Positions 2,670 to 42,890 of a DNA stretch of 64,000 nt are shown one piece after another. This stretch comes from Shigella phage vB_SdyM_006, in sequence record MK295204; one strand, 5' to 3'. The notes below the pieces were generated by a model. It was not told where the DNA came from and searched no databases. It saw only the letters and a program-made list of their open reading frames with translations. Positions within the stretch are counted from its first letter, which is position 1. The number at the start of each line of letters is the position of its first letter. The translations under genes were made by a program, and so were the position numbers.

Positions 2670-3233
2670 TTAGAAAAAATCATCTAATGTAAACTCTTTA
2701 TATCCTATCATTTCTTTGAATTCGCACATCACTATTGGGTTATATAAATTATAAGTCTTTATCCCTAAATAACGTGCTAGATAAACAGCTGTTCTTGTCC
2801 CTCCAGAAACATTCCCATATTTATCCTCAGGTGCCCAAAATATAACTGAATCAACAGGATTTTCTAAAGTAGGTGTTAATATTTGCATACAATTTCTACA
2901 TTGAAGATGTTTAACAGTTTTAGAAACACTGTCTAATTTAGGATAAAATCTTCTTATAATATTAGCGGCTTTTTCTTGGATTTCGTCATTAAAGTCTGTA
3001 AATATATGAACACCATTCCCAGAATAGTGATTATTGAACCCCTGGTGAGGAATAATAACACATTTATTTTCAGATGAGTATTTCTTCATAAACAAATAAT
3101 CACTCCCAGGCGCTCCTCCTGATGTTCCTAGCACTCCTAAATTAGAAATATATTCTCCACCACTTATTAAAATATTAGATAAACGACTTGGTATTTTTCT
3201 TGACCCTATTAAAGCTACAGAATTTTTAACCAT
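2670..3233 (-). CDS. DprA/Smf-like SLOG (Rossmann-fold) protein
   Basis: Motifs IGSR, TSGGAPGSD and SGGTRTA resemble DprA/LOG-type nucleotide-binding fold; ATG with GAGGT RBS; a terminator hairpin sits immediately upstream. Confidence 0.5.
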   Translation of the reverse strand: MVKNSVALIGSRKIPSRLSNILISGGEYISNLGVLGTSGGAPGSDYLFMKKYSSENKCVIIPHQGFNNHYSGNGVHIFTDFNDEIQEKAANIIRRFYPKLDSVSKTVKHLQCRNCMQILTPTLENPVDSVIFWAPEDKYGNVSGGTRTAVYLARYLGIKTYNLYNPIVMCEFKEMIGYKEFTLDDFF

Positions 3234-3241
3234 GCTAACCT

Positions 3242-3262
3242 CAAAAAGGACCCGAAGGTCCT
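3242..3262 (-). terminator. intrinsic terminator directly upstream of the SLOG-like gene
   Basis: On minus strand: stem GGACC, loop TTCG, stem GGTCC, then TTTTT, then RBS and ATG at 3233. Confidence 0.55.
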
Positions 3263-3267
3263 TTAAT

Positions 3268-3423
3268 TTATTGTAAAGCTAAAATTAAACCCACAATAAT
3301 AAACCATAACACAAACCCAATCCATAATGGTGATAACACCCATAGCCAAGACCAAGCAATGACACCAACTAGTTTTAAAACAATAAACACAATACCTAGT
3401 ACACCCAAAAATCCAATTTTCAT
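3268..3423 (-). CDS. small hydrophobic membrane protein (51 aa), not in ORF track
   Basis: ATG 1 nt after stop of upstream gene; translation MKIGFLGVLGIVFIVLKLVGVIAWSWLWVLSPLWIGFVLWFIIVGLILALQ is almost entirely hydrophobic (about two TM helices). Confidence 0.35.
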   Translation of the reverse strand: MKIGFLGVLGIVFIVLKLVGVIAWSWLWVLSPLWIGFVLWFIIVGLILALQ

Positions 3424-3424
3424 A

Positions 3425-3670
3425 TTACCAACCTGTTATTTGTATTATATTAGAATCAAATTGGGTTCTTTTAACAGTTAACCCTTCGTTTTGTAATTTT
3501 GTAATAACTTTCTCTTGGACTCGGTATGAGATTTCACCTAGAGTCCAAGTTAAACTATCATACCCATGTTTAGATTTAAGCATTAATCGCTTTGCAATAT
3601 CATTAAACACCTGTTTAGATTCAAGCTCAACTAAGCTATCTTTAGAATCTTTTAATTTATCAATAAACAT
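3425..3670 (-). CDS. hypothetical protein (81 aa)
   Basis: ORF in leftward operon downstream of rnlB. Confidence 0.5.
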   Translation of the reverse strand: MFIDKLKDSKDSLVELESKQVFNDIAKRLMLKSKHGYDSLTWTLGEISYRVQEKVITKLQNEGLTVKRTQFDSNIIQITGW

Positions 3671-3677
3671 AATAAAC

Positions 3678-4682
3678 CTATTTTGTAATTAAATTGACCC
3701 AATCTTTTCGAATGAATTCTTGTATTTCTTTTTGAATAGATTTCTTGATTAATGCTGGGTCATCGTAATCAAGAATATCATGCCCGTCTTTTAACATATC
3801 TTTTAAAACATCCTGCATCATTAGACCTTGAACTTTGCCAAAATCTTTTGAAGATATTTCGCCAACATGGCTAATCACATTAGATAAACGTTGTGCAGTG
3901 ATATATGATGTAGAAAAATTAACCAGTTCTTGGTCGTCATTTGATAATTCTGGTGTAGGTCTAATTGTTTTTACTTTACCAGTTTCTTTGAACTTAGCAT
4001 TTTTACATTTAAAAATTACACGGCTTTTATTATTGAACTGTGTTGGAGTAATAGGTTTAAGAACATAACCTTCTGCAATATTTTCTGAACCTTCTTTTTG
4101 AGGACCAAATACGTGGGCATTTGCAGCCGGAATACCATGTTCTTTTACTATTGCATTAAATTCTGGGATTAAAGAATCAAATGAACGCTCTAAATTACTT
4201 AATTCATCAAAGTCACCAGTTAAAATAACAGGGCAGATTTTAAGATTTGTTTTAGAAGATAACATTCTTAAAAATAAAGCATCTACTAAATCACCATTAA
4301 TTAAAATATCAAATACCCAGAAATCTTTTTCTTCGTAATCTACTTCTCGTTGAATACCAGGGCCTGCATATTCGCCAAAGACTGTTAAAAGTTCTAAGTC
4401 AGGCATTGATTCTTTAACAGTATTAAACATGTCAAGAATGTTTTGTTTATAACGCTTTAAGATTAATTCGTATCCAAAAAATGCTTCAGATTCACCAATA
4501 AGATTAGTTCGTTTTGCACAAACAACATCTACACCATCACAAATAAAACTAAAATTAGTCCCATGTATTTTTTCTTGGGCAATCCAAGGAATACCTGGTG
4601 CTGTTTTTCCTTCAAAAAAGGCCTTTTCTACTAATTTAGTGTTATCAATATTTTCAATAGAATCATATTTAATAAATTGCAT
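3678..4682 (-). CDS. rnlB: RNA ligase 2
   Basis: 334 aa, same length as T4 Rnl2; nucleotidyltransferase motif EKIHGTN and co-linear similarity to T4 Rnl2. Confidence 0.9.
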   Translation of the reverse strand: MQFIKYDSIENIDNTKLVEKAFFEGKTAPGIPWIAQEKIHGTNFSFICDGVDVVCAKRTNLIGESEAFFGYELILKRYKQNILDMFNTVKESMPDLELLTVFGEYAGPGIQREVDYEEKDFWVFDILINGDLVDALFLRMLSSKTNLKICPVILTGDFDELSNLERSFDSLIPEFNAIVKEHGIPAANAHVFGPQKEGSENIAEGYVLKPITPTQFNNKSRVIFKCKNAKFKETGKVKTIRPTPELSNDDQELVNFSTSYITAQRLSNVISHVGEISSKDFGKVQGLMMQDVLKDMLKDGHDILDYDDPALIKKSIQKEIQEFIRKDWVNLITK

Positions 4683-5018
4683 TTATACCTCAAACAATCG
4701 TATTTTAAGACTAGTTGTATATTTGATTTCTAAATTATAAACTTTACCACTATAAACAACAAGAATTTTATTTGGGTTTTCTTCACACCACATTATATTA
4801 TCGTCATTAATAATGTTTAAAAATTCTAGCTCTGAATAACAAGCCCACGAGAATGATTTACTTAAAAACTCTTTTAAATCAAGCCAATCGGTTTCGTCAC
4901 AAATAGCAGGACTCATAACAGCAAGTTTGTGGGTATATGTTTCTTTATCACACCAACGAGTAAAAAACACTTCACGTTTTTCTTCTAAAGGAATAACACC
5001 AGCAGTATACCAAGACAT
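4683..5018 (-). CDS. hypothetical protein (111 aa)
   Basis: ORF; C-terminus resembles that of the next ORF. Confidence 0.5.
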   Translation of the reverse strand: MSWYTAGVIPLEEKREVFFTRWCDKETYTHKLAVMSPAICDETDWLDLKEFLSKSFSWACYSELEFLNIINDDNIMWCEENPNKILVVYSGKVYNLEIKYTTSLKIRLFEV

Positions 5019-5027
5019 AATAATTCC

Positions 5028-5312
5028 TTATTTGATTGGGATGATTCTAAATTTGTATTCACCGCCACGAGTAAATTTAACTTCTAACTGAGTTGATTCA
5101 CCAATGTAAAGAACCAAAATTGAATTTTTATTAGAACGTAACCAGTCTTGATATTCTTCAAAAGACTTGCGTAAAGATGGGATGCTATTTTTATATCGGC
5201 CTAAAATAGTCCATGAGAATTCACCACTGCCCATCCATTTAGTGGAACGGTCATATTTTAAAAGGTTTTCAATATCAATATTTAACCATGTTTTAAAGTT
5301 TTCTTTAATCAT
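5028..5312 (-). CDS. hypothetical protein (94 aa)
   Basis: ORF; C-terminal pattern ILVLYIGE..LEVKF resembles ILVVYSGK..LEIKY of 4683..5018. Confidence 0.5.
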   Translation of the reverse strand: MIKENFKTWLNIDIENLLKYDRSTKWMGSGEFSWTILGRYKNSIPSLRKSFEEYQDWLRSNKNSILVLYIGESTQLEVKFTRGGEYKFRIIPIK

Positions 5313-5500
5313 TTTCTTACCTTCATTCGTTTACGATAAACTACTTTTTCGCGAGTTTTAAATTCCTTCTGTTTTTGTTCAACTTCAATATAAACAGAAG
5401 CCATTTCTTTAGCTGTTCCACCCATTTTTCTGGCTATATCAACAAAGTGCATACCTTGTTGTTTAAGAAAGTGGATTTTTATTTTATCATGATTTGTCAT
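5309..5500 (-). CDS. small basic protein, possible helix-turn-helix
   Basis: Track ORF starts at TTG (5512); first ATG at 5500; Lys/Arg-rich C-terminus. Confidence 0.4.
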   Translation of the reverse strand: MTNHDKIKIHFLKQQGMHFVDIARKMGGTAKEMASVYIEVEQKQKEFKTREKVVYRKRMKVRK

Positions 5501-5660
5501 TATTTTCTTCAAAATCTTTACAGATATCCAAGAGTTTTTTGTTTAAAGCTTCAACAAATTCTGTAGCTGAATCAGGGTATTCGTTAAATAAATAACACAA
5601 ATACTCACTATGTATTTCATGGGCCACTTGAGAAACCATAGTCTTAAGTTCTTTATTCAT
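5487..5660 (-). CDS. hypothetical protein (57 aa from ATG with GAGG RBS)
   Basis: Track ORF extends to 5693 overlapping the macro gene; internal ATG at 5660 has RBS and removes the overlap. Confidence 0.4.
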   Translation of the reverse strand: MNKELKTMVSQVAHEIHSEYLCYLFNEYPDSATEFVEALNKKLLDICKDFEENNDKS

Positions 5661-5664
5661 ATAA

Positions 5665-6099
5665 TCACCTCTCAATAATGTGTATTCTATCATCTAAAAT
5701 ATCATTAAGCATAGGACCAATGACATCCCAATTTAAGCCACCATTAGAACACCCTGGTTTAGGCAGGAGAACTCTTTTAAAATTGTTATTAGATACTATC
5801 TCCATTAATTCTAATGCACTCTTACGTATCAGGTCTTTATCAGACTTGTTATACCAATCATGTTTAGTAGGAAATGATATTAAATTAATGTTATTATATT
5901 TCGTAAGAATTCTGCATACATGGCCGTATTGGATTAAGGATTTAGCCATGATTAAGTCTAAATTAGGAACCTTCAACGAAAAGAGACGGGCAATTCCGGC
6001 TCCCATAACAGCTCTTTTATTTTTCTTGATATTCATGTTTGTTGTAATGCAAATAGCATCACAAGGGATATCAAGAATATTTCCAGATACTATTTTCAT
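5665..6099 (-). CDS. macro-domain protein (ADP-ribose binding/hydrolase fold)
   Basis: 144 aa; N-terminal SGNILDIPCDAICITTN, glycine loop VMGAGIA, C-terminal PKPGCSNGG fit minimal macro domain. Confidence 0.75.
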   Translation of the reverse strand: MKIVSGNILDIPCDAICITTNMNIKKNKRAVMGAGIARLFSLKVPNLDLIMAKSLIQYGHVCRILTKYNNINLISFPTKHDWYNKSDKDLIRKSALELMEIVSNNNFKRVLLPKPGCSNGGLNWDVIGPMLNDILDDRIHIIER

Positions 6100-6518
6100 A
6101 AAGCTTCTTTTAAAACTTCTATAGCATGCTTAATTTCAAAAGGGATACCTTCTGATGGATGCTGGCGAATGTTATCGTCAATATGACTAAAATCCATGCC
6201 AATTACACGGACTTTATATTTTTGCTCACTATCAAATTCTGATATATTAGAACCCCAAGTGTTTGATGATGTAACTTCTTTAGTCTCAAAATAAGTACAT
6301 CCACAATGACAATATTCGTGCCAAAAATCACAGTCTTTATCAAATAAAGGGTGGTCTTCGCGAAGAGTTAAATATACCGCATAACTCCAATCCGGACGAC
6401 CATCATTAAATAAAGCTTTATAACTAGGTGGTAATCCTGTAAACCATGAAGTAACTTCAATAGCTTCGCCTTTCTTTTTATCTGCATGAACAGTGTATAC
6501 ATATTTTTGAATAGACAT
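6096..6518 (-). CDS. Cys/His-rich protein coupled to macro-domain gene
   Basis: Stop overlaps macro start (ATGA); contains CDFWHEYCHCGC cluster; no family recognised. Confidence 0.55.
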   Translation of the reverse strand: MSIQKYVYTVHADKKKGEAIEVTSWFTGLPPSYKALFNDGRPDWSYAVYLTLREDHPLFDKDCDFWHEYCHCGCTYFETKEVTSSNTWGSNISEFDSEQKYKVRVIGMDFSHIDDNIRQHPSEGIPFEIKHAIEVLKEAL

Positions 6519-6716
6519 TTATTTTACCTCAATAATAGTGAGTTCAGTATCTTCTGTCAAATCACAAAAGTCAAAAGCCAATGCAGCAATACCTGGGTAT
6601 TCTGATTCGTCAATAATACATTCAGTATTATTATTTTTGATGTCTAAGGCTAATTGATAATTAGACGTAGTAAATCCAAGTTCAAGTTCTTCGCACCATA
6701 CGGTATACTTTTTCAT
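6519..6716 (-). CDS. small protein, tandem paralog A (65 aa)
   Basis: Begins MKKYTVWCEE, ends TIIEVK; paralog of adjacent gene. Confidence 0.55.
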   Translation of the reverse strand: MKKYTVWCEELELGFTTSNYQLALDIKNNNTECIIDESEYPGIAALAFDFCDLTEDTELTIIEVK

Positions 6717-6911
6717 TTATTTTACCTCAATGAGTTCACAATCGTATAAACAACTACACAGTTCACAAAAAGAATAAGCCGATGCATATGAATCAGTGTC
6801 TATCCAAAACCCAAGATTATCAATAGCACCTTTACGAACTTCATAAGCAAGTTGATAATCAACTGTTTCAAATCCAATTTTCTTTTCTTCGCACCATACT
6901 ATATATTTCAT
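6717..6911 (-). CDS. small protein, tandem paralog B (64 aa)
   Basis: Begins MKYIVWCEE, ends ELIEVK; abuts paralog A. Confidence 0.55.
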   Translation of the reverse strand: MKYIVWCEEKKIGFETVDYQLAYEVRKGAIDNLGFWIDTDSYASAYSFCELCSCLYDCELIEVK

Positions 6912-7756
6912 GAGTATTCCTTGTCATAATAAGAATCTGGAGTAAAAATATTTAACATATTTGTAGAATTATCAATAGTAATAATATTTTCCTGTTCAAC
7001 TTCAGGTGTATAATATTTTAAAAACTCTTCTTTAACGTATTTTACTGGATCACTTTTATAATCGTCAGTAGAAATATCAAATAATTCAATTGTATACGTA
7101 TCAAGCCATTTTTCAGAACATGTTAATCGTCCACATAATAATCCATCATAAACGATAGCATATTCAATATGGCCCCATTTATATGAGCTATCAGCGTCGT
7201 GTCTGATTAGATAAAACTTAATATCAGAATTCTCACAATCATCACTAATATTGTCACGAACATCGTATTCATTGAGCTCGGTCAATTCACTTAAAGCATT
7301 AATAAACAGGTTTTTATATTGAGGGCCAGTTACTAACTTATCTTCTGTTAGTTCTTTCTCAATAAATTCTTTTAAAGTTAAAACTGGCAATTCATACTTA
7401 GGAAATAATGCAGTTTCAGTAATAGTGCCGATATTCAATTCGGCCAATTTCTTAATAACAGAATCTTCAGCTTTATCAGAATCAGTCCAAATATGAAGAA
7501 CTTTAAAATTATGATTATTCCAAATTTTTTGTGGGTCAACATCAATCACATCTTGGGTTTTAGACAAAAACATTAAAAGGTAATCAGAATCATTCCACCC
7601 TACTGGGTTTTCGTATTTTTGAATGACTAGATATTGGAAATCAGTCATTAATGCATTATATCTTTCTTTAGAAGCTAAAGAAGTAGAATCCATAGATGAA
7701 GAAAAAGCTTCAATAACACTAGCTGGGTTTTTAATTAACATTTTGAATAGTCCCAT
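6908..7756 (-). CDS. hypothetical protein (282 aa)
   Basis: ORF with ATG; ATGA overlap with downstream gene. Confidence 0.55.
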   Translation of the reverse strand: MGLFKMLIKNPASVIEAFSSSMDSTSLASKERYNALMTDFQYLVIQKYENPVGWNDSDYLLMFLSKTQDVIDVDPQKIWNNHNFKVLHIWTDSDKAEDSVIKKLAELNIGTITETALFPKYELPVLTLKEFIEKELTEDKLVTGPQYKNLFINALSELTELNEYDVRDNISDDCENSDIKFYLIRHDADSSYKWGHIEYAIVYDGLLCGRLTCSEKWLDTYTIELFDISTDDYKSDPVKYVKEEFLKYYTPEVEQENIITIDNSTNMLNIFTPDSYYDKEYS

Positions 7757-7977
7757 GTGATTTTAACACGATCATGATATATTACTCTATCATGGCTTTT
7801 TGAAACTGTAAATCCTTTTTCTTTAAGAATTTCAATCAACGCATCTTTAATGGCTTCATTTTCTGGAAGCTTTGCGTAATGCTCTGTACTATCATGCAAA
7901 GCCAGTTGGCAAATATCATTTAACACAATAGCTAAATTGTGTTCAACAACAGTATTTTTAAGATCAGATAAATTCAT
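7735..7977 (-). CDS. hypothetical protein (80 aa), first gene of leftward accessory operon
   Basis: ORF with ATG; candidate GTTTAC promoter upstream. Confidence 0.5.
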   Translation of the reverse strand: MNLSDLKNTVVEHNLAIVLNDICQLALHDSTEHYAKLPENEAIKDALIEILKEKGFTVSKSHDRVIYHDRVKITWDYSKC

Positions 7978-8010
7978 ATTATTCTCACAGTTGCGAATTG
8001 ATGATGTGTA

Positions 8011-8039
8011 TACTATATTATAAAATAGTGTTTGTAAAC
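8011..8039 (-). promoter_or_regulatory. candidate early promoter for leftward accessory operon
   Basis: Minus strand GTTTAC, 16 nt spacer, TATAGT. Confidence 0.35.
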
Positions 8040-8062
8040 ATCTAAAATAATTTAAAATAAAT

Positions 8063-8091
8063 GTTTACTTTTGCTGTCATTATGATATTAT
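8063..8091 (+). promoter_or_regulatory. T4-type early promoter, copy 1 of repeated promoter/5'UTR cassette
   Basis: GTTTAC (8063-8068), 17 nt, TATTAT (8086-8091); followed by conserved leader ending GGAGTATATTATG. Confidence 0.6.
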
Positions 8092-8133
8092 ATACATATT
8101 GAAACGAAACATGAAAAACAAATGGAGTATATT

Positions 8134-8478
8134 ATGAATAAGACACAAATCAATGCAGTTTTAAAAACTTTAGGTTATGGTAATTTACGTTATTCTAATG
8201 GTAAAACATACCGCAGAGGAAACTCTATGGTTAAAGGTTTTCATTTAATTTCTACTGGTGCATGTATGGTGACTTCACCAGAAACACAAAAATTTAGTGA
8301 TCTTGTTAATGAGTTAAAACAACATTTTGAATTACAATCATATTATGACAATTGCATGGCAATATTTGTGACAGGAAAATTAAAAATTGTTGTTTGTTTA
8401 ACAAATTTTAATACATACGGTGGCTTAAACCCAGATTATAAAACATGGTTTGCATCTGTTAATATTGAAAAGTTATAA
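8134..8478 (+). CDS. hypothetical protein (114 aa), rightward moron-like gene
   Basis: ATG at 8134 preceded by GGAG; opposite orientation to neighbours; own promoter and terminator. Confidence 0.55.
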   Translation: MNKTQINAVLKTLGYGNLRYSNGKTYRRGNSMVKGFHLISTGACMVTSPETQKFSDLVNELKQHFELQSYYDNCMAIFVTGKLKIVVCLTNFNTYGGLNPDYKTWFASVNIEKL

Positions 8479-8481
8479 AAC

Positions 8482-8509
8482 AAAAATGGGACCGTAAGGT
8501 CCCATTTTC
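8482..8509. terminator. bidirectional intrinsic terminator
   Basis: AAAAA, stem ATGGGACC, loop GTAA, stem GGTCCCAT, TTTT; between 8134..8478 (+) and gp54 (-). Confidence 0.6.
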
Positions 8510-9422
8510 AAATTAATCTTGTTACAGCTCCTATTCCTCCTCCAGCACCACCTAATCTTGTTAAATTTCTTAATGAAGAGCTTAAAGAGTTTTCTTCTGA
8601 AATTGTATCTATGGCACCAATTGCTTTTGATTCTAACCAATCAAGAGCTGCTTGCCTACCGACAGAACCTACCTGCATCACCCTGTATGCGAATGTAACA
8701 TCAAAAACAGCAATAGTATTATTATCTTCATATGAAAGTTCAGGAGCACCTACCGACATAGGAACACACCCTGTGAACATGGCAACAGTATGTGGAAGAC
8801 CGTTTCTATTGTGTAAATTAACCTGGATATCGGCTTCAACATCTATAGGTAAAGCACGTAGTCCTGTGATTGGGTCTTCAACTGAATTCACCCAATCTTG
8901 CATAGCTCGATAATTACTTGCTTCTGAATCCATCCTAAACGAAATTATCAACGGGTCATATTCTCTAGATAGAACTTTTATATTAGGTGAATTATGATTT
9001 TTATCCATCTCATAAGATAGTCTGTTTTCTGGTAATTTGACAGAATAAACCATTAACCCAGATGTTGGAAATGCCATATTAAAGAAATCTAATAGATAAG
9101 TCCCTACTTCAAATTCTCCTAATAATGATTGAACCACACGATTAGACATGGCTCCTAAAAGATATTTAGAAACACCAGATTTTCTCACTAGTTTTTGAGT
9201 ACCAGCAACAACTAGACTTGATACTGCACTAGTTACATCATTTTGAGATATTCCAAGAAAATCTGTATCTATAGGTAAATTGTTAAACAAAAAACCACCA
9301 AAATTATCTAAAAGCTCATTAGTTTTTGATGATGGGGCTGTGGCAAAAACAACACTAAACATGTTTGTTCTTTGGAAGTCAAGATTGACAGCTTGGCTTT
9401 TAAATTCTTCTAATGTATACAT
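8508..9422 (-). CDS. 54: baseplate tail-tube initiator gp54-like
   Basis: 304 aa; position and size fit T4 gene order 29-48-54. Confidence 0.65.
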   Translation of the reverse strand: MYTLEEFKSQAVNLDFQRTNMFSVVFATAPSSKTNELLDNFGGFLFNNLPIDTDFLGISQNDVTSAVSSLVVAGTQKLVRKSGVSKYLLGAMSNRVVQSLLGEFEVGTYLLDFFNMAFPTSGLMVYSVKLPENRLSYEMDKNHNSPNIKVLSREYDPLIISFRMDSEASNYRAMQDWVNSVEDPITGLRALPIDVEADIQVNLHNRNGLPHTVAMFTGCVPMSVGAPELSYEDNNTIAVFDVTFAYRVMQVGSVGRQAALDWLESKAIGAIDTISEENSLSSSLRNLTRLGGAGGGIGAVTRLI

Positions 9423-15798: not shown

Positions 15799-16209
15799 AT
15801 GAATTTAGAAGAATTACAAACAATGTTATCAGAAGATTTAAGAATTGATCCATTAAAACTTCAATATGAAGCTGCAAATAATCCAACATTATATGGAAAA
15901 TGGTTAAAAATTTATTCTGATATAAAGAAAGGAATTATTTCTTATGAAGCTAATAAGAAAAAACTTTTAAAACAAAGATTAGACCATTATACTGGACGTG
16001 GTGATGAAGTGTGTATGGACTTATATGAAAAATCAGAACTTAAAACTGTTATTGCAGCTGACCCAGAAATTTTGAAAACACAAACATCTGTGGAATATAG
16101 AACATTATTATTGGATTTTGCATCAAAAGCTTTAGATGCTATTAAAGCCCGTGGATTTAGTATTAAGCACATTCTAGAATGTAGACAATTTGAGGCAGGA
16201 ACAAAATGA
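15799..16209 (+). CDS. uvsY: recombination mediator UvsY
   Basis: 136 aa; KLQYEAANN and LLDFxSxALDAIKxRGFxIKHI match T4 UvsY. Confidence 0.9.
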   Translation: MNLEELQTMLSEDLRIDPLKLQYEAANNPTLYGKWLKIYSDIKKGIISYEANKKKLLKQRLDHYTGRGDEVCMDLYEKSELKTVIAADPEILKTQTSVEYRTLLLDFASKALDAIKARGFSIKHILECRQFEAGTK

Positions 16210-16577
16210 CAAGCATTGATGTATTGAATCAACAGATTGATTTAGCTTCTTCAATTGAAGGAATTACTGACAAAACTCCTGTAATAAAATCAATGAAACA
16301 CTATTTAAGAGATATAAATAATATTAAGCCAATGGCTGAAGGTATACTTAAAAGTAATAAATTACCTGATTATACATTATCTCAAATCATTGAAGAACTA
16401 AAAGGATGGGCTATGGACCATATTTGTGTAGTTTGTAAAAAGCCTATTGATGAGAGTTTAGTTATCTATAACGATAATAATGAACCTGTTCATCCGGGGC
16501 CTTGTTATAATTTTGCTAAAGAACAACCTGTAACAGAATCAGGTCATTCTTTAAATGAAGTAGAATTATTAATGTAA
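16206..16577 (+). CDS. hypothetical Cys-rich protein downstream of uvsY
   Basis: 123 aa; CVVCKK...HPGPCY suggests zinc ribbon. Confidence 0.5.
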   Translation: MTSIDVLNQQIDLASSIEGITDKTPVIKSMKHYLRDINNIKPMAEGILKSNKLPDYTLSQIIEELKGWAMDHICVVCKKPIDESLVIYNDNNEPVHPGPCYNFAKEQPVTESGHSLNEVELLM

Positions 16578-16583
16578 AAAATA

Positions 16584-16609
16584 AAAGACGAGGGTTACTC
16601 GTCTTTTTC
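16584..16609. terminator. bidirectional terminator
   Basis: Stem AAAGACGAG, loop GGTTAC, stem CTCGTCTTT, flanked by A- and T-runs. Confidence 0.55.
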
Positions 16610-16816
16610 TGTTTCTAAATCTTCTAATTCTAATCTCTTGCCTTCTAAGGCATCTCTTATAGAGATATCATCAGTATCTTTAATTTCTAATTCTTTTATA
16701 CGTTTAGAATAATATTTTTCTAATTCGTCTAAACCAGCCAATGTTTGACATTCTCTTATTTTGTTCATAAAAGTTTCGACACTAGCTTCGATTAAAATAT
16801 CTTTAAATTTTAACAT
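16595..16816 (-). CDS. UvsW.1-like small protein
   Basis: 73 aa directly downstream of uvsW. Confidence 0.5.
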   Translation of the reverse strand: MLKFKDILIEASVETFMNKIRECQTLAGLDELEKYYSKRIKELEIKDTDDISIRDALEGKRLELEDLETEKDE

Positions 16817-18315
16817 AATTTTACCTCTCTCATAGAATAATCAAATTGTTCACTTGCATACCTTTCTATACGTTCTAAAGCGTGTTTTAATGCATAATTT
16901 AAATGTACATATTTCTTTTTAGAATTTTTAGATTTAGGTTTTACACCCATGTCATCTACAATGTCCCAAAGAACACCTTCAGCTTTAGAACCATGTAATC
17001 TAAGAACACGTCCAATAGATTGTAATACGGTTACTTTTGATTTAATTGGGTGTGCAAATATAACATGGTGTAAATTTTTTATAGATACACCAGCACTGAA
17101 AACACCATAAGAAGCGACTACAACCATCCCTGAGCGTTTTTCTGCTAAGGCCTTTATAATATCTCTATCTTTGTCTTTAACTTCTCCTGCGATAAAGAAG
17201 ACGTTTTCTTCGCCATATATAGCCTTACATGCCTCGTATAGATCTTTACCATGGGCTATTCTATCAAACATAACAAACACATTTTCATTTTTAGATGCTA
17301 ATTTACATGCAAGTTTAGCTATCCATTCATTACGCTGTTTAGCTTTAATAATGATTTTAATTTCATCTTGATACGAAAATCCTTTAACTTTTTCTGTAAA
17401 CGCATCCGGGTATCTTAAAAACAAAGTATTAATTTTAAGTTTAGACACTTGTCCTGCTTCCATTAGTTCAGCCGTGGACACTGGTTTGTATATATCTCCA
17501 AATAATCCGATATATTGCATTACATTAGCTTTGCCATCTTTAACGGTTCCTGTTAGCCCGAATTTAAATTTACAGTTGTTTAATCCGTTAATAATAGTAC
17601 TAATACTTTTACCAGTCGCTAAATGACACTCATCATTCATTAACATTCCAAATTGACTAAACCATTCTTTTGGTTGCTTAATAGCTGTCTGCCAGGTTGA
17701 TACGTAAACCAAAGCATCAGAATCTTTAGCTGTACCGCCTTTTATTCCTAATAACATTTCTTTAGAAAATAGTCTATAGTCGACTAAGTCATCAATCATT
17801 TGTTTAACAAGAATAGTTGTTGGAACTAAAATTAAAACTTTACCTTGAAAGTTTTCTATATAATAACGTGCTAAGAGCGCCTGGATCAACGATTTACCAG
17901 CTGATGTAGGTAAATTCAATAAAGCTCTATTTTGTGTTAAGCCTTTAACTACAGAATCTTTTTGATACCAATGAGGCGTTATCTTAGATGACCCAGAATA
18001 TATTTCTTTAGAATCTATCCAATCAGAAACTTCTTTTTCAGTAATATCGCCATTATCATATATTTTAGGATCCGTTTCTACAGTATAGTCCATATTAGAA
18101 GCAAACTTTTTAACATAGTTCACAAGCCCGTATGGTAATAAGCCGTCATACCCTAAAATTCTAATCTTGCCGTCCCATTGACCATATTTAAATTTTGGAT
18201 TAAATTGGTACCCAGGAGTTTCGAAAGAGAAATAATCTCTTAATTCAAAGAACACAGAATCTTCACACTCGATTTTTACACTACTATAATCGTAAAACTT
18301 TAATTTAATATCCAT
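16810..18315 (-). CDS. uvsW: DNA/RNA helicase UvsW
   Basis: Strong co-linearity with T4 UvsW from MDIKLKFYDYS; helicase motifs LNLPTSAGKS and DECH; track ORF has 13-codon extension, start placed at MDIK. Confidence 0.9.
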   Translation of the reverse strand: MDIKLKFYDYSSVKIECEDSVFFELRDYFSFETPGYQFNPKFKYGQWDGKIRILGYDGLLPYGLVNYVKKFASNMDYTVETDPKIYDNGDITEKEVSDWIDSKEIYSGSSKITPHWYQKDSVVKGLTQNRALLNLPTSAGKSLIQALLARYYIENFQGKVLILVPTTILVKQMIDDLVDYRLFSKEMLLGIKGGTAKDSDALVYVSTWQTAIKQPKEWFSQFGMLMNDECHLATGKSISTIINGLNNCKFKFGLTGTVKDGKANVMQYIGLFGDIYKPVSTAELMEAGQVSKLKINTLFLRYPDAFTEKVKGFSYQDEIKIIIKAKQRNEWIAKLACKLASKNENVFVMFDRIAHGKDLYEACKAIYGEENVFFIAGEVKDKDRDIIKALAEKRSGMVVVASYGVFSAGVSIKNLHHVIFAHPIKSKVTVLQSIGRVLRLHGSKAEGVLWDIVDDMGVKPKSKNSKKKYVHLNYALKHALERIERYASEQFDYSMREVKLC

Positions 18316-18329
18316 TACTTTCACCTTGT

Positions 18330-18337
18330 TATAAATA
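18330..18337 (+). promoter_or_regulatory. late promoter TATAAATA for inh-like/hoc
   Basis: Exact TATAAATA 33 nt before ATG at 18371. Confidence 0.5.
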
Positions 18338-18343
18338 CATATA

Positions 18344-18351
18344 TATTTATA
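18344..18351 (-). promoter_or_regulatory. late promoter TATAAATA upstream of uvsW
   Basis: Exact TATAAATA on minus strand about 29 nt before uvsW ATG. Confidence 0.45.
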
Positions 18352-18370
18352 CAAAGCCTAAGAGGACATT

Positions 18371-19084
18371 ATGAAAATTGATCAACAATATATTGATTCT
18401 TTAACTGAAGAATATACTTCAGGCGAAATTGATAGAAAAACAGCTAAACAAAAATTAACAGATTATGCTAAAGAATCTTTTAATTTTGATTTAAACAAAC
18501 AAAAAAGTTTTGAGAATATGATTGTTCAGCTTAAAGAAATGATCGATAATTATGTAGAACCCGAATTAGAAGAACAAGATGGAATTTCTATTAAAGATCT
18601 AATTACCGCAGCTGACCAATTAGATGGTAAAAGTGTTTTTAATGATGCCAATGAAGAAGCATTAGAATTACTTTCAGATGTTTCTTATGATGGAATTAAA
18701 CCAGATTTGGTAATTAAAACACCCCAACCACAAATTACTAAAGAAGAAATTATTGATAAACCAGAAAAATCTTTAATAAGTAAGAATTTAGAAGTTAAAG
18801 AAGAAATTAAATCCCAAGAATATATGCCGGAATCGGCAAAATATGTTCTTCCTGATGGGTTCTCTCCAACTATTACATTAATTGGTAAAACTCCTGGATA
18901 TTATACTCTTCCATGGTGGATTTATCAATGGATTTTAGAAAATGAAGATTGGAAAGATAGGCCAGAAGAATGCCCCGAGTATTCAGCTATTAATATTTTA
19001 AAATCATTGATTTACTTTATTAATAGAGATGGACAGGTCAAAATTAGAGAAACAAGAAATTCAAGATTTTATACCCTAAAATAA
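18371..19084 (+). CDS. acidic protein at the inh position
   Basis: 237 aa (T4 Inh 226 aa); position immediately upstream of hoc; no sequence confirmation. Confidence 0.4.
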   Translation: MKIDQQYIDSLTEEYTSGEIDRKTAKQKLTDYAKESFNFDLNKQKSFENMIVQLKEMIDNYVEPELEEQDGISIKDLITAADQLDGKSVFNDANEEALELLSDVSYDGIKPDLVIKTPQPQITKEEIIDKPEKSLISKNLEVKEEIKSQEYMPESAKYVLPDGFSPTITLIGKTPGYYTLPWWIYQWILENEDWKDRPEECPEYSAINILKSLIYFINRDGQVKIRETRNSRFYTLK

Positions 19085-19093
19085 GGATTATAT

Positions 19094-19918
19094 ATGAGTA
19101 TAGTACTAAAATTAACACCAGAGAACCCTAAAATTACTATAGGAGAATCTCAAGAATTCACCATGACTACAGAGAATCAAACAGATGAGACTCTAAAATA
19201 TGAATGGTATATTAATGAAGACATATATGAAGCCACAAATAAAAATATGACATATACACCTGATAAATCAGGTGAATTTATTATAAAATGTAAAGTATCT
19301 TCTTTAGGATTAGAAGGGGAAACCGTTTTAGGCGAAGAATCCACCACTTTAACTGTAAATCTTAAAACTATAACCGATTTGACGACAAATATTACAGGCC
19401 CAAAAGAAGCAGAATATGGCGAAGAATTTGAACTTGTTGTAAATGCTGAAACTACAGCAGAATCTCCTAAATATACATATAAATGGTCTAGTGGTGAAAC
19501 TACAAAAAAAATAAAGGTAATTGAATCTGAAGAAGGTGAAAAAACTTTTACATGTACAGTAACATGTAAATCAACTAATTATGAACCCGCTACTTCAACA
19601 TCAGAACATAAAGTTTCTATATCAAAACCCGTAGTTCCTGAACCAGATCCGTCTTGTGAATCATGTAGATATATTCATCCTTTAGACCATAGAGAATCAG
19701 CATATTTATGGGTAGGATACTGGGTACTAGAAGAAATAGAAAAAGCCGTGGAAGAAGGAATTGATTGGAAGAAGCCAGATGATACTGATCTAAAATATAA
19801 ATGTGATTTGAAGACCCTCGCATTTATGTTAGAAAAATACCCTAATGTAGATGTACAAGAATCAAGAAATGGATATATCTTATCTAAAGACGATATTGAA
19901 AATGGGGTTATTTACTAA
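19094..19918 (+). CDS. hoc: outer capsid protein Hoc (two Ig-like domains plus capsid-binding C-terminus)
   Basis: C-terminus HPLDHRESAYLW...DVQESRNGYI matches T4 Hoc; two Ig-like repeats rather than three. Confidence 0.85.
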   Translation: MSIVLKLTPENPKITIGESQEFTMTTENQTDETLKYEWYINEDIYEATNKNMTYTPDKSGEFIIKCKVSSLGLEGETVLGEESTTLTVNLKTITDLTTNITGPKEAEYGEEFELVVNAETTAESPKYTYKWSSGETTKKIKVIESEEGEKTFTCTVTCKSTNYEPATSTSEHKVSISKPVVPEPDPSCESCRYIHPLDHRESAYLWVGYWVLEEIEKAVEEGIDWKKPDDTDLKYKCDLKTLAFMLEKYPNVDVQESRNGYILSKDDIENGVIY

Positions 19919-23045: not shown

Positions 23046-23249
23046 CTAAATAATTTTTGATAAATCATCTTGTATTGCTAAGATTTTATGAAAATCTGAT
23101 TCTCTTATAGGACAAGACTTATCTAACTTAAATGATATTAAAGAATTCATAAAGATAGATTCTATTTGTTCTTCTAAATCATCTATTAAAATATTCTTCT
23201 GGTGATTGTCCAAAGATTTCATAAAAGTCATTTGCCTCTTGTTTATCAA
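23046..23249 (-). CDS. hypothetical small protein, start uncertain
   Basis: ORF overlaps ligase 3' end by 71 nt as drawn; true start may be an internal ATG. Confidence 0.3.
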   Translation of the reverse strand: MINKRQMTFMKSLDNHQKNILIDDLEEQIESIFMNSLISFKLDKSCPIRESDFHKILAIQDDLSKII

Positions 23250-24651
23250 GACGTCTCATTTTAACACGTGGTAAAAATAAACTATATGTTTCTCGTCCAT
23301 CAACTTTTTGAGCTGCATTACATACACCCGAGATAATCATACCGACAAGTTTACCTTTCTTATGAAGATCCCATAATAAACGACGGTCTAATTCATGACG
23401 TTTATCGAGTGGAATCCAGATTTTTTCTTTTGAACCTTTTACCTTTTCGTAATCTTTATCCTTAAAACCAGAACCACAGTCAACTAAAATAGTCCCATCT
23501 CTAGACCTTAAATTGACACCACCTAATTTTTCAGGGTCTTTAGAATGTGGATACGCACCAATAATTTCTAAATCAAAATCTTTTTCTTCTTTAAATTTTA
23601 CTTGGTCACAAGTACGTCCATCAGACCAAACACCAAGTTTATTTTTTAGAATAATACCTTCTAACTTCATATCAACATATTTTCTGTAAATAACTTGGGC
23701 TTCTTCTAAAGTCTTAACTTCTTCTGATGGAATTAATTCTAAACGTCCTGCTTTTTTAGTAATTAATTCTAAATTTTTTAACCTTTCTTTGTAAGGTTTA
23801 TTAATTTCTGAATTATCAGTCTGTGTACCTTGTGTAACTTCATAGTTAATTAGATCCCAGACCTGGAATTTAACACAATCTGCTTCGGTTTTTGAAATGG
23901 TTCCTTGGATTGATTTATTTGCAATACCGTTACCTTCTTCTCTAGAAGCAACAATATTTTCTTCTTCGTCTTCATCAAAGAATAAATCTAGACCTTGTTT
24001 TGTTGATTTAGGAAAATAAACTAGTTCACCATCAAGAACAACGTTTCCTAATCCTTCAGTGATAGATACAATTTCTTCTTTTAGCAAATCTAGACCAAGA
24101 TATTCGCTACCAGAACGAGAATATAAATTAACTTCCCCGTCTACAACTTCGGCAAAACATCTAGCACCATCTGCTTTAAGCTGAGCTAATGCTGGGAATT
24201 TAATTTTAGATACATTAGCTTTACTAAAAGGCGCTGCTAAAAACTGCGGCTGCTTTGGTAATAAATTTTCCCATACTTTGTTTGGAATACTTCTTCCTAC
24301 ACCACATTCCAAGTCACGTTTGACAATGCGTTTAATTAATGCTGCATCTTTAGGGCATAAACTTTCTAATACATCTTTTAAAGCAGCAATTGCAGCATGT
24401 CCTGTTAAAACCCGTTCACCTAAAACATTTTCTAAAAAATCTAAAGCGTCACGAAGTGTTTTAGATTCGGTTTTAGGTTCATATTCTGGAATCTTTTTAA
24501 TATGGAATTTGACTCTTTGAGAATATGTTAATCTAAACACATCTTTTACTAATAAATTGTTTTTATATTTTAAAAGAATATTTTCTTTTTCTTTTAATGA
24601 ATCCGTAGAAGCTAGTTCTACAATAATATCGTATACCATACCTTTTTCCAT
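23179..24651 (-). CDS. 30: ATP-dependent DNA ligase gp30
   Basis: Active-site KADGAR (KxDG) and long co-linearity with T4 DNA ligase; start may be second ATG (24639). Confidence 0.9.
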   Translation of the reverse strand: MEKGMVYDIIVELASTDSLKEKENILLKYKNNLLVKDVFRLTYSQRVKFHIKKIPEYEPKTESKTLRDALDFLENVLGERVLTGHAAIAALKDVLESLCPKDAALIKRIVKRDLECGVGRSIPNKVWENLLPKQPQFLAAPFSKANVSKIKFPALAQLKADGARCFAEVVDGEVNLYSRSGSEYLGLDLLKEEIVSITEGLGNVVLDGELVYFPKSTKQGLDLFFDEDEEENIVASREEGNGIANKSIQGTISKTEADCVKFQVWDLINYEVTQGTQTDNSEINKPYKERLKNLELITKKAGRLELIPSEEVKTLEEAQVIYRKYVDMKLEGIILKNKLGVWSDGRTCDQVKFKEEKDFDLEIIGAYPHSKDPEKLGGVNLRSRDGTILVDCGSGFKDKDYEKVKGSKEKIWIPLDKRHELDRRLLWDLHKKGKLVGMIISGVCNAAQKVDGRETYSLFLPRVKMRRLDKQEANDFYEIFGQSPEEYFNR

Positions 24652-25296: not shown

Positions 25297-25739
25297 TATG
25301 CATCCTCATATTTAATTGCCATAAGAGCCTTTTTAGTGAATTCGTAGATGTCAATATTTTTAACACCTTGGCTTAAAATAGATTCCACTGTTTTATCAAG
25401 AACTGGCTTAATAAAAGGTCCTTGAAGATTCATTGTTCCAGTTCTATCTTTAAATGCGATAACGAATTTACGATCGACCCAATTATTTTTGGGTTCAAGA
25501 TTTTCTATTTTTTCAAAATAACCATGTTCATCAACGTCAATAATAAACGCTACTGTAAAATCGTCTTCGGTTAAAGTTTCGTCACCACATTTAAGTTTTT
25601 TGACATGTCCACTTTCGTCAAGTTCAATAACTTTAAATGGGCTATTTGAGATAGCATTAGCAATACGTTCATTAGAATAATTTTCATCAACAAATCCGTC
25701 AATGTCAATTAATTTATACCAACCATTTAATTCAAACAT
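25296..25739 (-). CDS. hypothetical protein, tandem paralog (147 aa)
   Basis: SNSPFKVIELDESG resembles GKNPFKVLALGPGN of next gene. Confidence 0.5.
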   Translation of the reverse strand: MFELNGWYKLIDIDGFVDENYSNERIANAISNSPFKVIELDESGHVKKLKCGDETLTEDDFTVAFIIDVDEHGYFEKIENLEPKNNWVDRKFVIAFKDRTGTMNLQGPFIKPVLDKTVESILSQGVKNIDIYEFTKKALMAIKYEDA

Positions 25740-25746
25740 AGTATTC

Positions 25747-29275: not shown

Positions 29276-29614
29276 TTATTCCTTAAGCATATACATATAA
29301 ACTAAATAGGTTGTGTTTCTAGTTTTTACAATAGCTACTCTATCATCTAACATTTTAAAGCTCTTTACAGTAGATGTACTAACATAAGTTTCATCTTTAA
29401 ATCGATTAGAAATATCACTGTAAATAAGTCCAGAAATACCAAATCTGGCTTCTAAATTAACTTCAAGAATATGCTCTAATTTATCAGACATTCGATGTCC
29501 GATAACAGCTAGAATAGCATCGCATGCACAAGCATTTCGAATAGAAGATAATTCAGATTCTTGGTTTTGCCCTATTTTATCTTCAATTGCGTTAATCAAT
29601 TTTTCTGTTTTCAT
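29276..29614 (-). CDS. hypothetical protein (112 aa)
   Basis: ORF directly downstream of DAHP synthase gene. Confidence 0.5.
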   Translation of the reverse strand: MKTEKLINAIEDKIGQNQESELSSIRNACACDAILAVIGHRMSDKLEHILEVNLEARFGISGLIYSDISNRFKDETYVSTSTVKSFKMLDDRVAIVKTRNTTYLVYMYMLKE

Positions 29615-32395: not shown

Positions 32396-33109
32396 TCATT
32401 TTAATTCCTGCTCAATTTTGTCAATGATTGCATAAATTTCATGTTTAACTGGAGTAACGGTTTTACCTGATTTTTTAAACAACTTAGAAGCTTCTTCAGG
32501 ATTTGTTTTATACAATTTTTTAGCTTCTTCTTTGATGATAGTGGCTTCTTCAACTGCAGACATAAGTTCTTTAAGCTTTTTACGAAGATCTTCGATATCA
32601 TTATTACATGGAACAAAATCTTTTTCTAAAATCATAAAACGATGCCATTGAGTAACAGAAATTGGGTCAGTTAATTTAAAATCTGATATTTCTGTTTTAC
32701 CAGGAATAATGATATCATTATCAGTCTCAGCAACTTTGACTACAACATGAGTCACTTTGTCATCTTCAATAGTTGGAATAAACCGAGGTCTTAAATCAGG
32801 ATTTGCCTTTTTAGTAGAATGCAAAGAAGCAAATCGTTTAAACCGAGTATCTGTAATACTATGGACAAACGAAGCATCATTAAGCATATATACGTTCTGG
32901 TCATCTTCAAGAATGTGCACATCACCTGGGAGATGTAACATATATCCTGACGATGAAGCAGGGCTAGAATTGAAACCTGGTAAATGATTAACTTCAGAAT
33001 AATCGATCTTAAAAAGACCATCAGATCTTCGTGTTGCATTGACAGTAATAGGGAACACAATACCTGCCATGCTTGCAAAACCATTATGGCTTGTTAATTT
33101 AATTTTCAT
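32396..33109 (-). CDS. hypothetical protein (237 aa)
   Basis: N-terminal GIVFPITVNAT resembles next ORF. Confidence 0.5.
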   Translation of the reverse strand: MKIKLTSHNGFASMAGIVFPITVNATRRSDGLFKIDYSEVNHLPGFNSSPASSSGYMLHLPGDVHILEDDQNVYMLNDASFVHSITDTRFKRFASLHSTKKANPDLRPRFIPTIEDDKVTHVVVKVAETDNDIIIPGKTEISDFKLTDPISVTQWHRFMILEKDFVPCNNDIEDLRKKLKELMSAVEEATIIKEEAKKLYKTNPEEASKLFKKSGKTVTPVKHEIYAIIDKIEQELK

Positions 33110-33111
33110 AA

Positions 33112-33333
33112 TTATTCCTCTATAACTGAAAACTCACGTGGTGTAAAATAATAAGAATCTGTTGATGCGGATTTGTCAAATCCTTTTAATTTAATGAACT
33201 GAGATTGGGCAACGTTGATACAAGCGCTGTTATCACAATCAGGTGTAGCATAGACTTCAATAGGAAACTGAATACCTTCTAAAGAAGTAAACCTGCCATC
33301 ACATAATATTTTTACTTTTATCATAATTTTCAC
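33112..33333 (-). CDS. hypothetical protein (73 aa), paralogous N-terminal domain
   Basis: GIQFPIEVYAT shared with 32396..33109. Confidence 0.45.
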   Translation of the reverse strand: MKIMIKVKILCDGRFTSLEGIQFPIEVYATPDCDNSACINVAQSQFIKLKGFDKSASTDSYYFTPREFSVIEE

Positions 33334-41857: not shown

Positions 41858-42147
41858 TTATTATCACTCACGTACACCAATTGTTTAAAAGATAGTTTAA
41901 GCTGTTCTATAGATACTTTAGAATCCGCTGTAACGAATTCTAATTCACCCATTCCTAGCATTTTACCATCAACCCAAAGTTCAATACATGTCATGTCCCA
42001 CCAATTTTTTCTAGAATTCAAGAAATCTCTAACTTGTTCTAAGTTAGAGAAAACTCCTGCGTTTCTAGAGGATTCACACATATTATGGTCAACAACAATA
42101 AGTATCTTCGACATTTTTATCCACCAAAACAAAATAAATTTGCTCAC
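41842..42147 (-). CDS. hypothetical protein
   Basis: ORF; start uncertain. Confidence 0.4.
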
Positions 42148-42496
42148 CTTGTTTAATAAAATATCCGTAGATTTTTACTTCAGTATCTTTAACTTTAACA
42201 TACCCTTCAGAAACGGCTTTTGTTATGTCAAATAGTGTAGTACGAATATAAACCAAGCCATCTTTAGTTCTAATAGATGTACATGATGAATTTATATTTG
42301 AGCCAAGTTCTTTTATATCACAAGAAATCTCATAAATACCATGGTGTAATTCTCGTTCTTGACAATTTCTATAATTAGATTTAAAAGTTTTTAAAGAAAT
42401 AGAATCTAAAAAGAATGTTCTTGAAGGAGGCGCTTTAACTAATTTCCATGAGCACATTGGTTGTACAAACTTTTTATACAATTTAATTTCAGCCAT
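42089..42496 (-). CDS. hypothetical protein, tandem paralog (135 aa)
   Basis: Shares W.LV.APK, HG.YE, ISEG with next ORF. Confidence 0.5.
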   Translation of the reverse strand: MAEIKLYKKFVQPMCSWKLVKAPPSRTFFLDSISLKTFKSNYRNCQERELHHGIYEISCDIKELGSNINSSCTSIRTKDGLVYIRTTLFDITKAVSEGYVKVKDTEVKIYGYFIKQGEQIYFVLVDKNVEDTYCC

Positions 42497-42890
42497 TATT
42501 CAAGTCCTCATTTATTAAAGGATAAAGACAAATAATACGGCCATTTTTTCTAAAGATACCTTTAACTGTAATTAAGTTATTTTCAATTTTAGTATGTCCT
42601 TCAGAAATAGATTTAAAAAGACGACATAAACATGTGTCCATTTTAACAGCTCGTTTATCTGTGATATCTGAATTTGTCAAATATAAATCGTGTCCATTAC
42701 CGCCATATTCTCTATCAATTTTATAATTTTTTAATTCGTAGACACCATGCGGCATAACATCAACATGTTCTTTTCGTATTAAAGATTTATACCCATCGAT
42801 AGTAAGGTCTTTAAAGAATAAGAAATGTTCTTTAGGTGCTTCTACAAGAACCCAATTATTTTGTTCTTCAAATCTGTGAATTAGTTGCAT
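42489..42890 (-). CDS. hypothetical protein, tandem paralog (133 aa)
   Basis: See previous feature. Confidence 0.5.
   Translation of the reverse strand: MQLIHRFEEQNNWVLVEAPKEHFLFFKDLTIDGYKSLIRKEHVDVMPHGVYELKNYKIDREYGGNGHDLYLTNSDITDKRAVKMDTCLCRLFKSISEGHTKIENNLITVKGIFRKNGRIICLYPLINEDLNNG

Follow-up and report, generated by a model that had tools for sequence, protein, structure and literature searches.

Adjacent pairs of diverged small genes in a T4-like genome segment of Shigella phage vB_SdyM_006

In phage T4, the tandem amplification of dmd-tifA via microhomologies of 6-10 bp has been shown experimentally (PMC9391042), and the proteins 55.1, 55.2 and 39.2, so-called ORFans of its hyperplastic region, bind and modulate host proteins (PMC4396842). 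Here we report on five pairs of adjacent small genes, named A to E, in a stretch of 64,000 nucleotides from Shigella phage vB_SdyM_006 (sequence record MK295204). This stretch, referred to as the window, is affiliated with the genus Bragavirus (Straboviridae) and represents a T4-like myovirus of Proteus and relatives. An earlier note made from the sequence of the window had claimed that adjacent paralogs recur at five places, and that such repeated local duplication and divergence of small proteins is typical of arms-race loci such as inhibitor families. Our analysis favors, with moderate confidence, the view that the pairs represent five independent small accessory gene families located between conserved core modules of a T4-like genome, which became paired by duplication and whose products bind macromolecules. 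Records of related phages list every one of the ten paired open reading frames (ORFs), or its ortholog, as a hypothetical protein.

Five families of adjacent paralogs

The ten genes of the five pairs are the following:

A1, 6519..6716, minus strand: 65 aa, downstream diverged copy with the conserved motif replaced by ALDIKNNN
A2, 6717..6911, minus strand: 64 aa, upstream copy with the canonical family sequence, AYEVRKG...N motif kept, five Cys
B1, 4683..5018, minus strand: 111 aa, phrog_18468, ~35-aa C-terminal motif common with B2
B2, 5028..5312, minus strand: 94 aa, phrog_19888
C1, 25296..25739, minus strand: 147 aa, goF-like paralog, phrog_3710
C2, 25747..26199, minus strand: 150 aa, goF-like paralog, phrog_3710
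D1, 32396..33109, minus strand: 237 aa, N-terminal D2-like domain and C-terminal phrog_4482 domain
D2, 33112..33324, minus strand: 70 aa from the ATG, stand-alone copy of the D1 N-terminal domain
E1, 42089..42496, minus strand: 135 aa, phrog_1928, flanked by frd and td
E2, 42489..42890, minus strand: 133 aa, phrog_1928, 8-nt overlap with the start of E1

Homology within each pair was assessed by Smith-Waterman alignment with the BLOSUM62 matrix against 2000 shuffles, none of which reached the observed score in any pair. The adjacent minus-strand pairs announced in the earlier note were borne out at all five places, with scores of z = 8 to 19 above the shuffles, and in none of the five alignments are the identities at chance level. 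The highest score was obtained for pair A (z = 19.1; blastp E = 2e-8 at 43% identity across 69 aligned columns), for which the previously quoted motif is exact (MKKYTVWCEE...IIEVK and MKYIVWCEE...LIEVK), followed by pair E (z = 16.7; 30% local identity), pair D (z = 11.9; ~31%), pair C (z = 9.9; 41% over 39 aa, or 24% over 141 aa) and pair B (z = 8.0; 48% over 25 aa only). The match in pair B is confined to the C-terminal ~25-35 residues, while in pair D the small ORF, taken at its longest frame of 73 aa (33112-33333), aligns with no more than the N-terminal ~65 residues of its larger partner (237 aa). This longest frame starts at GTG 33333; the ATG at 33324 is the likelier start and gives the 70 aa that are annotated for the gene in phage SJ_PmiM. 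The GTG-start frame overlaps the 3' end of an o-spanin gene (33299-33607, minus strand, lipobox MLLTGC) by 35 nt.

Searches with PHROG profiles assigned both A proteins to phrog_21221 (A1 E = 2.5e-32, full-length with residues 2-65 on profile positions 1-66; A2 E = 1.1e-37), both C partners to phrog_3710 and both E partners to phrog_1928. The B partners correspond to phrog_18468 and phrog_19888 and the D partners to phrog_20482 and phrog_13367, and the partners cross-hit each other's profiles. In an all-against-all blastp comparison of 97 ORFs, five of the seven non-self pairs with E <= 2e-3 are neighbors (P ~8e-8), and gp23/gp24, the sole other strong paralog pair in the window, is likewise adjacent. 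All convincing paralog pairs in the window are adjacent. The five families are mutually unrelated (hhalign probability < 4%), and the string WCEE that A and B1 have in common was dismissed as a chance resemblance (hhalign probability 3%, 9 columns).

When the window was compared with phage PM2, irrespective of gene class, the paired genes were found to evolve faster than the other genes (Mann-Whitney p = 0.005). For the genes overall, the median nonsynonymous divergence (dN) is 0.10 and its median ratio to the synonymous divergence (dN/dS) is 0.13. Among the paired genes, dN is highest in C1 (0.67), followed by C2 (0.50), D1 (0.46), A1 (0.27) and B1 (0.26); E2 has a value of 0.17, and E1 (0.06) and B2 (0.10) as slower partners are not fast. 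Divergence is also asymmetric, with a faster and a slower partner in every pair (A1 > A2; B1 > B2; E2 > E1; C1 > C2). Near-identical repeat units, which are expected for recent amplification, were not observed among these pairs; the copies are 25-45% identical with saturated dS. Because of this low identity and saturation, the duplicates are old and do not represent recent amplifications.

Copy numbers among relatives were obtained by tblastn against 50,697 phage records for families A, B, C and E, and by comparison with fetched relatives only for family D. In the tblastn searches, hits of families A, B and C were restricted to the T4-like phages of Proteus, Morganella and Providencia, while family E was seen in Proteus phages and, as a single weak match, in Escherichia phage EcS1. 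B and E are paired in every Bragavirus genome examined; Morganella phage MP1 has one E copy and four copies of the B motif in three adjacent genes. D2 was found only in the window and SJ_PmiM. Family C has two copies in the window and three in SJ_PmiM, where SJ_105 is placed between the two. The window lacks a 603-bp cassette (SJ_105 + SJ_106) carried by SJ_PmiM and is otherwise ~100% identical here, such that the SJ_PmiM locus 23046-24589 with its three goF-like paralogs and a 53-aa ORF has its equivalent at 25739-25747 of the window. The junction of the cassette falls within the 13-nt sequence TATGTTTGAATTA, which is common to the paralog starts (MFEL...), and it appears to be the footprint of unequal recombination between C paralogs. 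This agrees with the amplifications and deletions via microhomology that were demonstrated experimentally in T4 (PMC9391042).

The relationship of family C to T4 goF was found with different methods (hhalign 97.4%, E = 1e-11 over 96 columns; hmmsearch of the C profile against T4 ORFs, 5.5e-13 for goF and 2.4e-10 for frd.2; blastp of the PM2 C paralog against goF, 33% identity, E = 2e-9). In the T4 segments examined, goF and frd.2 are dispersed paralogs (5842-6267 of one segment and 46143-46544 of the other), and motB.1 of T4 matches the C profile weakly (E = 0.0026). For families A, B, D and E, no homolog was detected by hmmsearch in T4 1-50 kb and 100-150 kb, the syntenic regions included. 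Likewise, no match of families B to E to known inhibitors was obtained in Pfam and PHROGs, searched with every protein, or in PDB sequence searches with C2, E1 and D1.

The repeated local duplication and divergence proposed in the earlier note is supported by the restriction of paralogs to neighbors, the unrelated families, the copy-number differences, the cassette junction in SJ_PmiM and the faster evolution. Its label of arms-race inhibitors is partly supported. The dynamics fit such a role; however, dN/dS across related phages amounted to 0.1-0.6 and was below 1 in every gene measured, and pairwise estimates (Nei-Gojobori method, NG86) gave no signal of positive selection, which together with the depth of divergence and the absent inhibitor homology leaves the label unestablished. 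Judging by their genomic setting, the genes may plausibly act against the host.

Pair A: history, expression signals and protein domain

A1 is 68-69% identical to the single copy of PM2 and SJ_PmiM, whereas A2 is 66% identical to the single copy of Morganella phage MP1 and 64-66% across the copies of Morganella/Providencia phages. Both copies occur in the window, in Proteus phage phiP4-3 and in the metagenomic contigs L009 and L010; PM2 and SJ_PmiM each have a single copy of the A1 type, MP1, Rgz1 and PSTRCR_121/127 a single copy of the A2 type, and Pm5461 has zero copies. In place of family A, Pm5461 (7176-7653) has a different tandem pair, formed by Pm5461_169 and Pm5461_170. Each of these is homologous to a single 80-aa gene of the window (7735-7977), and they represent a sixth tandem family at the locus. 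In a neighbor-joining tree with 20 outgroups and 300 bootstraps, the A1-type clade is supported by 100%, the group of the window A2 with MP1 and the database protein P0008 by 94%, and a group of A1 with the window A2 by 3%; dS between the two types is saturated. The grouping of A2 with the Morganella-phage copy and the saturated dS indicate that the A1/A2 split is old. Its origin would be either an import of A2 or a duplication that took place no later than the divergence of Bragavirus and Gualtarvirus and was followed by differential loss. Across four genomes, 0-1 amino-acid changes were counted in A2 and 3-9 in A1, and pairwise dN/dS values (NG86) are 0-0.26 for A2 and 0.09-0.46 for A1; with dN/dS of 0.1-0.25 overall, both genes are under purifying selection. 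The A1 gene of L010 is a mosaic allele with a PM2-like middle, showing dS of 0.7 to the window while dS = 0 in both flanking genes.

Several features of the locus bear on its expression and recombination:

18-nt exact direct repeat ATTGAGGTAAAATAAATG, copy 1, 6714..6731, minus strand: codes for IEVK, a stop codon and the start ATG of the following gene
Copy 2 of this 18-nt repeat, 6516..6533, minus strand: where A1 meets the 140-aa gene
Two overlapping sigma-70-type promoter-like sites, 8010..8046, minus strand: TTTAGA-18-TATAAT and TTTACA-17-TAGTAT, consensus matches only
282-aa gene, 6908..7756, minus strand: only in the A2-carrying genomes window, phiP4-3, L009 and L010

The 18-mer ATTGAGGTAAAATAAATG is located at the ends of both A genes, with two occurrences only in the window that are 198 nt apart, and a second repeat of pair A, the 15-mer GTATGGTGCGAAGAA, has a spacing of exactly 198 nt and is in register with it. 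A1 and A2 join at TAAATG. A GAGG within the 18-mer lies 8 nt before the ATG, in a Shine-Dalgarno-like position inside the upstream gene. Since both GAGG and start codon are inside the repeated 18-mer, the part of the gene that encodes the IEVK motif would at the same time serve as ribosome-binding site of the next gene. The repeat bounding A1 thus also encodes Shine-Dalgarno, stop and start, and selective constraint could account for it. A1 and A2 are translationally coupled within the minus-strand gene cluster 7977..2670, which holds pairs A and B. The promoter-like sites at 8010..8046 are situated upstream of this cluster, and the MP1 record has a promoter annotated at the equivalent position; the cluster is presumably transcribed early. 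A distant homolog of the 282-aa gene is found upstream of the A2-type gene of MP1 (gp0182, 29% identity).

A word-indexed protein search found just two close relatives of A1. The wider family was seen when 1.84 billion representatives were searched exhaustively with HMMER profiles, which gave 26 proteins at E <= 1e-3, including one low-complexity false hit (P0031). They define a domain of ~60 residues with the consensus xxYIVWNxxKTEGFxTTDxQLAYExRKGAxxNCxxxxGxxSxLAxxFCxxxxxxDCTIxE and a conserved polar site (N7, K10, D18, E24, R26, K27, N32). The signature residues Y3, V5, W6, G13, T16, A22, Y23, E24, R26, K27, N32, F48 and C49 are kept in A2. A1 is a divergent member, in which only hydrophobic, Gly and FC positions are kept and Y-E-x-R-K-G is lost; it is also the most acidic ORF in the window (pI 4.05, net charge -10). 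The domain stands alone (63-70 aa) or is placed at either end of proteins of 100-250 aa, and in phages and prophages the genes sit in regions of early or replication functions. In 13 other loci, the domain is single-copy, with neither a tandem copy nor a recurrent neighbor. Both A1 and A2 are full-length members of PHROG 21221, and distant relatives match PHROG 21221 as well as 18211; these two PHROGs are unannotated, whereas the wider domain, its motif and its fusions were delineated in the present analysis. Members of the T4-like branch were detected exclusively in phages with Proteus, Morganella or Providencia as recorded host and in one phage reported on Shigella, a distribution that may reflect a host-specific target.

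An AlphaFold model of A2 from an alignment of 25 sequences reached a mean predicted local distance difference test (pLDDT) of 88.5 and a predicted template modeling score (pTM) of 0.75; an earlier model from eight sequences (pLDDT 56) was discarded. The model contains strands at 2-6 and 13-16, helices at 19-27, 30-35 and 39-53, and a final strand at 59-63. Foldseek comparison of the A2 model with PDB and BFVD returned no significant match, and Pfam, NCBIfam, PADLOC and PDB sequence searches with family A were all negative. A2 is thus the conservative copy of a widespread phage domain of ~60 residues, with the predicted order beta-beta-alpha-alpha-alpha-beta. A1 is an old copy of derived sequence, strongly acidic and devoid of the polar motif.

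Known protein classes were also considered for the domain. A GIY-YIG nuclease found no support at the sequence level, as 0 of 25 family members match the GIY-YIG Pfam model even at E <= 10, hhalign against GIY-YIG alignments of 6 and 9 sequences gave a probability < 0.3%, and the A domain stops short of the helix that would carry the catalytic Glu; with regard to the beta-beta-alpha-alpha-beta core of that superfamily, a weak topological resemblance is retained. Acidic DNA mimics with anti-restriction activity (Ocr, Arn, DMP12-like), for which a strongly acidic surface combined with a structural likeness to a known mimic would be expected, were a further class considered. A HicB antitoxin was rejected, A1 and A2 having no HicB match in Pfam and PHROGs. 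The idea of a HicB/HicA system came from the distant relative P0024, in which a HicB-like domain is combined with an A domain, and the gene upstream of it is not HicA-like.

Genome setting and relatives

At 4000-9000, the window is 96.6% identical to Proteus phage phiP4-3, and a similarity of 98% between Shigella phage vB_SdyM_006 and phiP4-3 has been reported (PMC7925395). From ~13 kb to 47 kb, the proteins of the window are 97-100% identical to those of Proteus phage SJ_PmiM. Hence, the part 1-47000 is a mosaic, being phiP4-3-like below ~13 kb (~96% DNA identity) with only 60-98% protein identity to SJ_PmiM. The order of the core genes is T4-like, with gp23, gp24, rnlB ... gp54/48/29 ... alt, 30, and further on cd, pseT, spanins, alc, rnlA, denA, nrdB/A, td, frd, 32.

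The pair A locus is a run of small accessory genes adjoining RNA ligase 2 and a macro-domain ORF. The latter, two genes downstream of pair A (5665-6099, minus strand, 144 aa), gives a hit to the Macro domain of Pfam that is borderline (E = 2.4e-4, 21.5 bits vs. a cut-off of 22). It is annotated intact in PM2, whereas for phiP4-3 and Pm5461 a 46-aa ORF only is annotated and the place is taken by an unannotated gap or an opposite-strand ORF, such that the gene may be disrupted or missed there. Directly downstream of family A, a 140-aa gene (6096-6518, minus strand) with a Cys/His-rich motif (H..YCHCGCTYFE ... MDFSH) and without Pfam match is kept in every relative examined, including Pm5461, which lacks family A. 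The RNA ligase 2 gene is missing in L009, a metagenomic relative of phiP4-3, in which the interval from the B1 homolog to the 81-aa gene (6030-6460) contains no called ORF other than one of 47 aa.

Further observations were made outside the paired loci. A strong 13-bp stem-loop with terminator-like appearance at 8481-8510, between gp54 on the minus strand and the plus-strand ORF 8122-8478, could end transcription both ways. Between cd and pseT, an ORF of 323 aa (29614-30585, minus strand) has orthologs annotated as phospho-2-dehydro-3-deoxyheptonate aldolase (DAHP synthase); it represents an auxiliary metabolic gene that is lacking in the corresponding T4 region. In PM2 (16132-19789), inserted ORFs divide the uvsW helicase gene into several parts; an HNH-like sequence (HHIVPRCLGG) is present in at least one of these ORFs, hence the insertions are probably homing endonucleases.

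Competing explanations and comparison with known systems

In the reading that we prefer, each pair would have arisen by local duplication, probably through unequal or microhomology-mediated recombination, after which the copies diverged asymmetrically into a conservative and a fast one and were subject to lineage-specific loss or re-expansion. The products would act stoichiometrically by binding a host or phage macromolecule, probably not as enzymes, with A1 and A2 probably having distinct partners or forming a hetero-pair. Such a binder role appears most likely because of the analogy with the T4 ORFans 55.1, 55.2 and 39.2 (PMC4396842) and with TifA/Dmd (PMC9391042). Several points weigh against this reading. 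The function of all ten proteins is inferred by analogy, and the A domain has neither a recurrent gene neighbor nor homology to a known inhibitor or binder, while the strongly conserved polar residues and the three Cys conserved in the wider family could form a site for ligand binding, metal binding or catalysis instead of a surface for protein binding. The dN comparison pooled all gene classes, and small ORFs without a paired copy evolve at rates as high as those of the paired genes. The long A1 branch could distort the tree of family A by long-branch attraction. The promoter at 8010..8046 is a consensus match only, and the regional count of such matches is not above the shuffled expectation. 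Finally, the identity of A2 to its MP1 counterpart (66%) exceeds that of its neighbors, the 282-aa gene (29%) and the 140-aa gene (46%), which makes a horizontal import together with the 282-aa gene possible.

If so, pair A would not have originated from local duplication, and A2 would have arrived with the 282-aa gene from a Gualtarvirus-like phage beside the resident A1, whose 43% matches the divergence of the neighbors. The common presence or absence of A2 and the 282-aa gene, the clustering of A2 with MP1 and P0008, the recombinant A1 allele of L010 and the mosaic of phiP4-3-like and SJ_PmiM-like segments in the window itself would agree with such an event. On the other hand, a donor with a closely similar cassette was not found, the 282-aa gene is only 29% identical to its MP1 homolog, and the distribution is accounted for just as well by one deletion in the PM2/SJ lineage that removed this gene together with A2. 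Moreover, the A2-type gene of MP1 occupies the same place, directly upstream of the 140-aa homolog, which suits vertical descent of a slowly evolving A2. The import is therefore regarded as a possible but distinctly less probable origin of pair A. A further alternative is that the pairs are kept as obligate hetero-oligomers, i.e., as housekeeping accessory complexes and not as conflict genes. The stable pairs E and B across Bragavirus with coupled or overlapping frames, the abutting of A1 and A2 with the Shine-Dalgarno inside the upstream gene, and the fact that the partners of the only other paralog pair, gp23/gp24, are structural partners point in this direction. However, A1-type genes occur alone in PM2 and SJ_PmiM and the A2-type gene alone in MP1, the A domain is single-copy in the 13 other phage loci, and MP1 has a single E gene, so we consider this explanation unlikely.

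It might also be assumed that the pairs are recent amplifications of anti-defense inhibitors under current selection, a 'genomic accordion'. Copy numbers of C and D2 differing between near-identical genomes, junctions in short shared sequence, the T4 precedent (PMC9391042) and the position of small accessory genes beside RNA ligase 2 and the macro-domain ORF are in line with this assumption, which is nevertheless the least probable of those discussed here, since copies of 25-45% identity with saturated dS contradict it by their depth of divergence for A, B and E. B and E are in addition kept as pairs across the genus, dN/dS is < 1 throughout, and matches to known anti-defense proteins or PADLOC models are lacking. 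Even for family C, SJ_105 is 29-37% identical to C1 and C2, suggesting an origin before the split of the window and SJ_PmiM. With respect to pair A, a different role may be envisaged, in which the A domain is a widespread functional module, either binding ligands or nucleic acids or derived from a nuclease, that was duplicated in the phiP4-3 lineage, with A2 as active protein and A1 as acidic decoy, regulator or mimic in an anti-host system; we give this idea little weight.

The pairs are compact candidates for screens aiming at anti-defense or host takeover, and the C and A loci represent natural cases of gene copies that are gained, lost and exchanged at very short homologies. The A domain is unannotated, has a confident predicted structure without structural match and occurs in a natural pair, with the motif kept in one copy and lost in the other. 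The added value lies in this natural pair of an unannotated phage domain, which is now testable.

Among the known systems, the T4 hyperplastic ORFans (PMC4396842) are similar in being small non-essential genes between core modules, restricted to a sub-branch and without database homologs, but they have no sequence relationship to the families of the window. The T4 dmd-tifA amplification and the poxvirus K3L 'accordion' (PMC9391042) likewise involve tandem copies of small early genes arising at short homology with fast changes of copy number, features resembling the 13-nt junction of pair C and the 18-nt in-register repeats of pair A. However, the units there are identical and under acute selection, whereas here ancient copies (25-45% identity) are under purifying selection. 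The T4 genes goF (comC-alpha) and frd.2 are homologous to pair C and show that it belongs to a multi-copy family in T4-like phages; they are dispersed in T4 (5.8 kb and 146 kb), whereas pair C is in tandem, and the T4 record on goF states only that it "overcomes rho mutant effects". Adjacent paralogs in the same kind of early region are also known from T4 alt, alt.-1 and alt.-2 and from modA and modB, with alt being located in the syntenic neighborhood; in the T4 record, alt.-1/alt.-2 are described as stemming from a local duplication of old age, and modA/modB are entered side by side. In contrast to the pairs described here, these are ADP-ribosyltransferase genes or fragments thereof with known chemistry. 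Collectively, tandem diverged small paralogs are expected in the plastic regions of T4-like phages, and the view of such genomes is unchanged by the five pairs.

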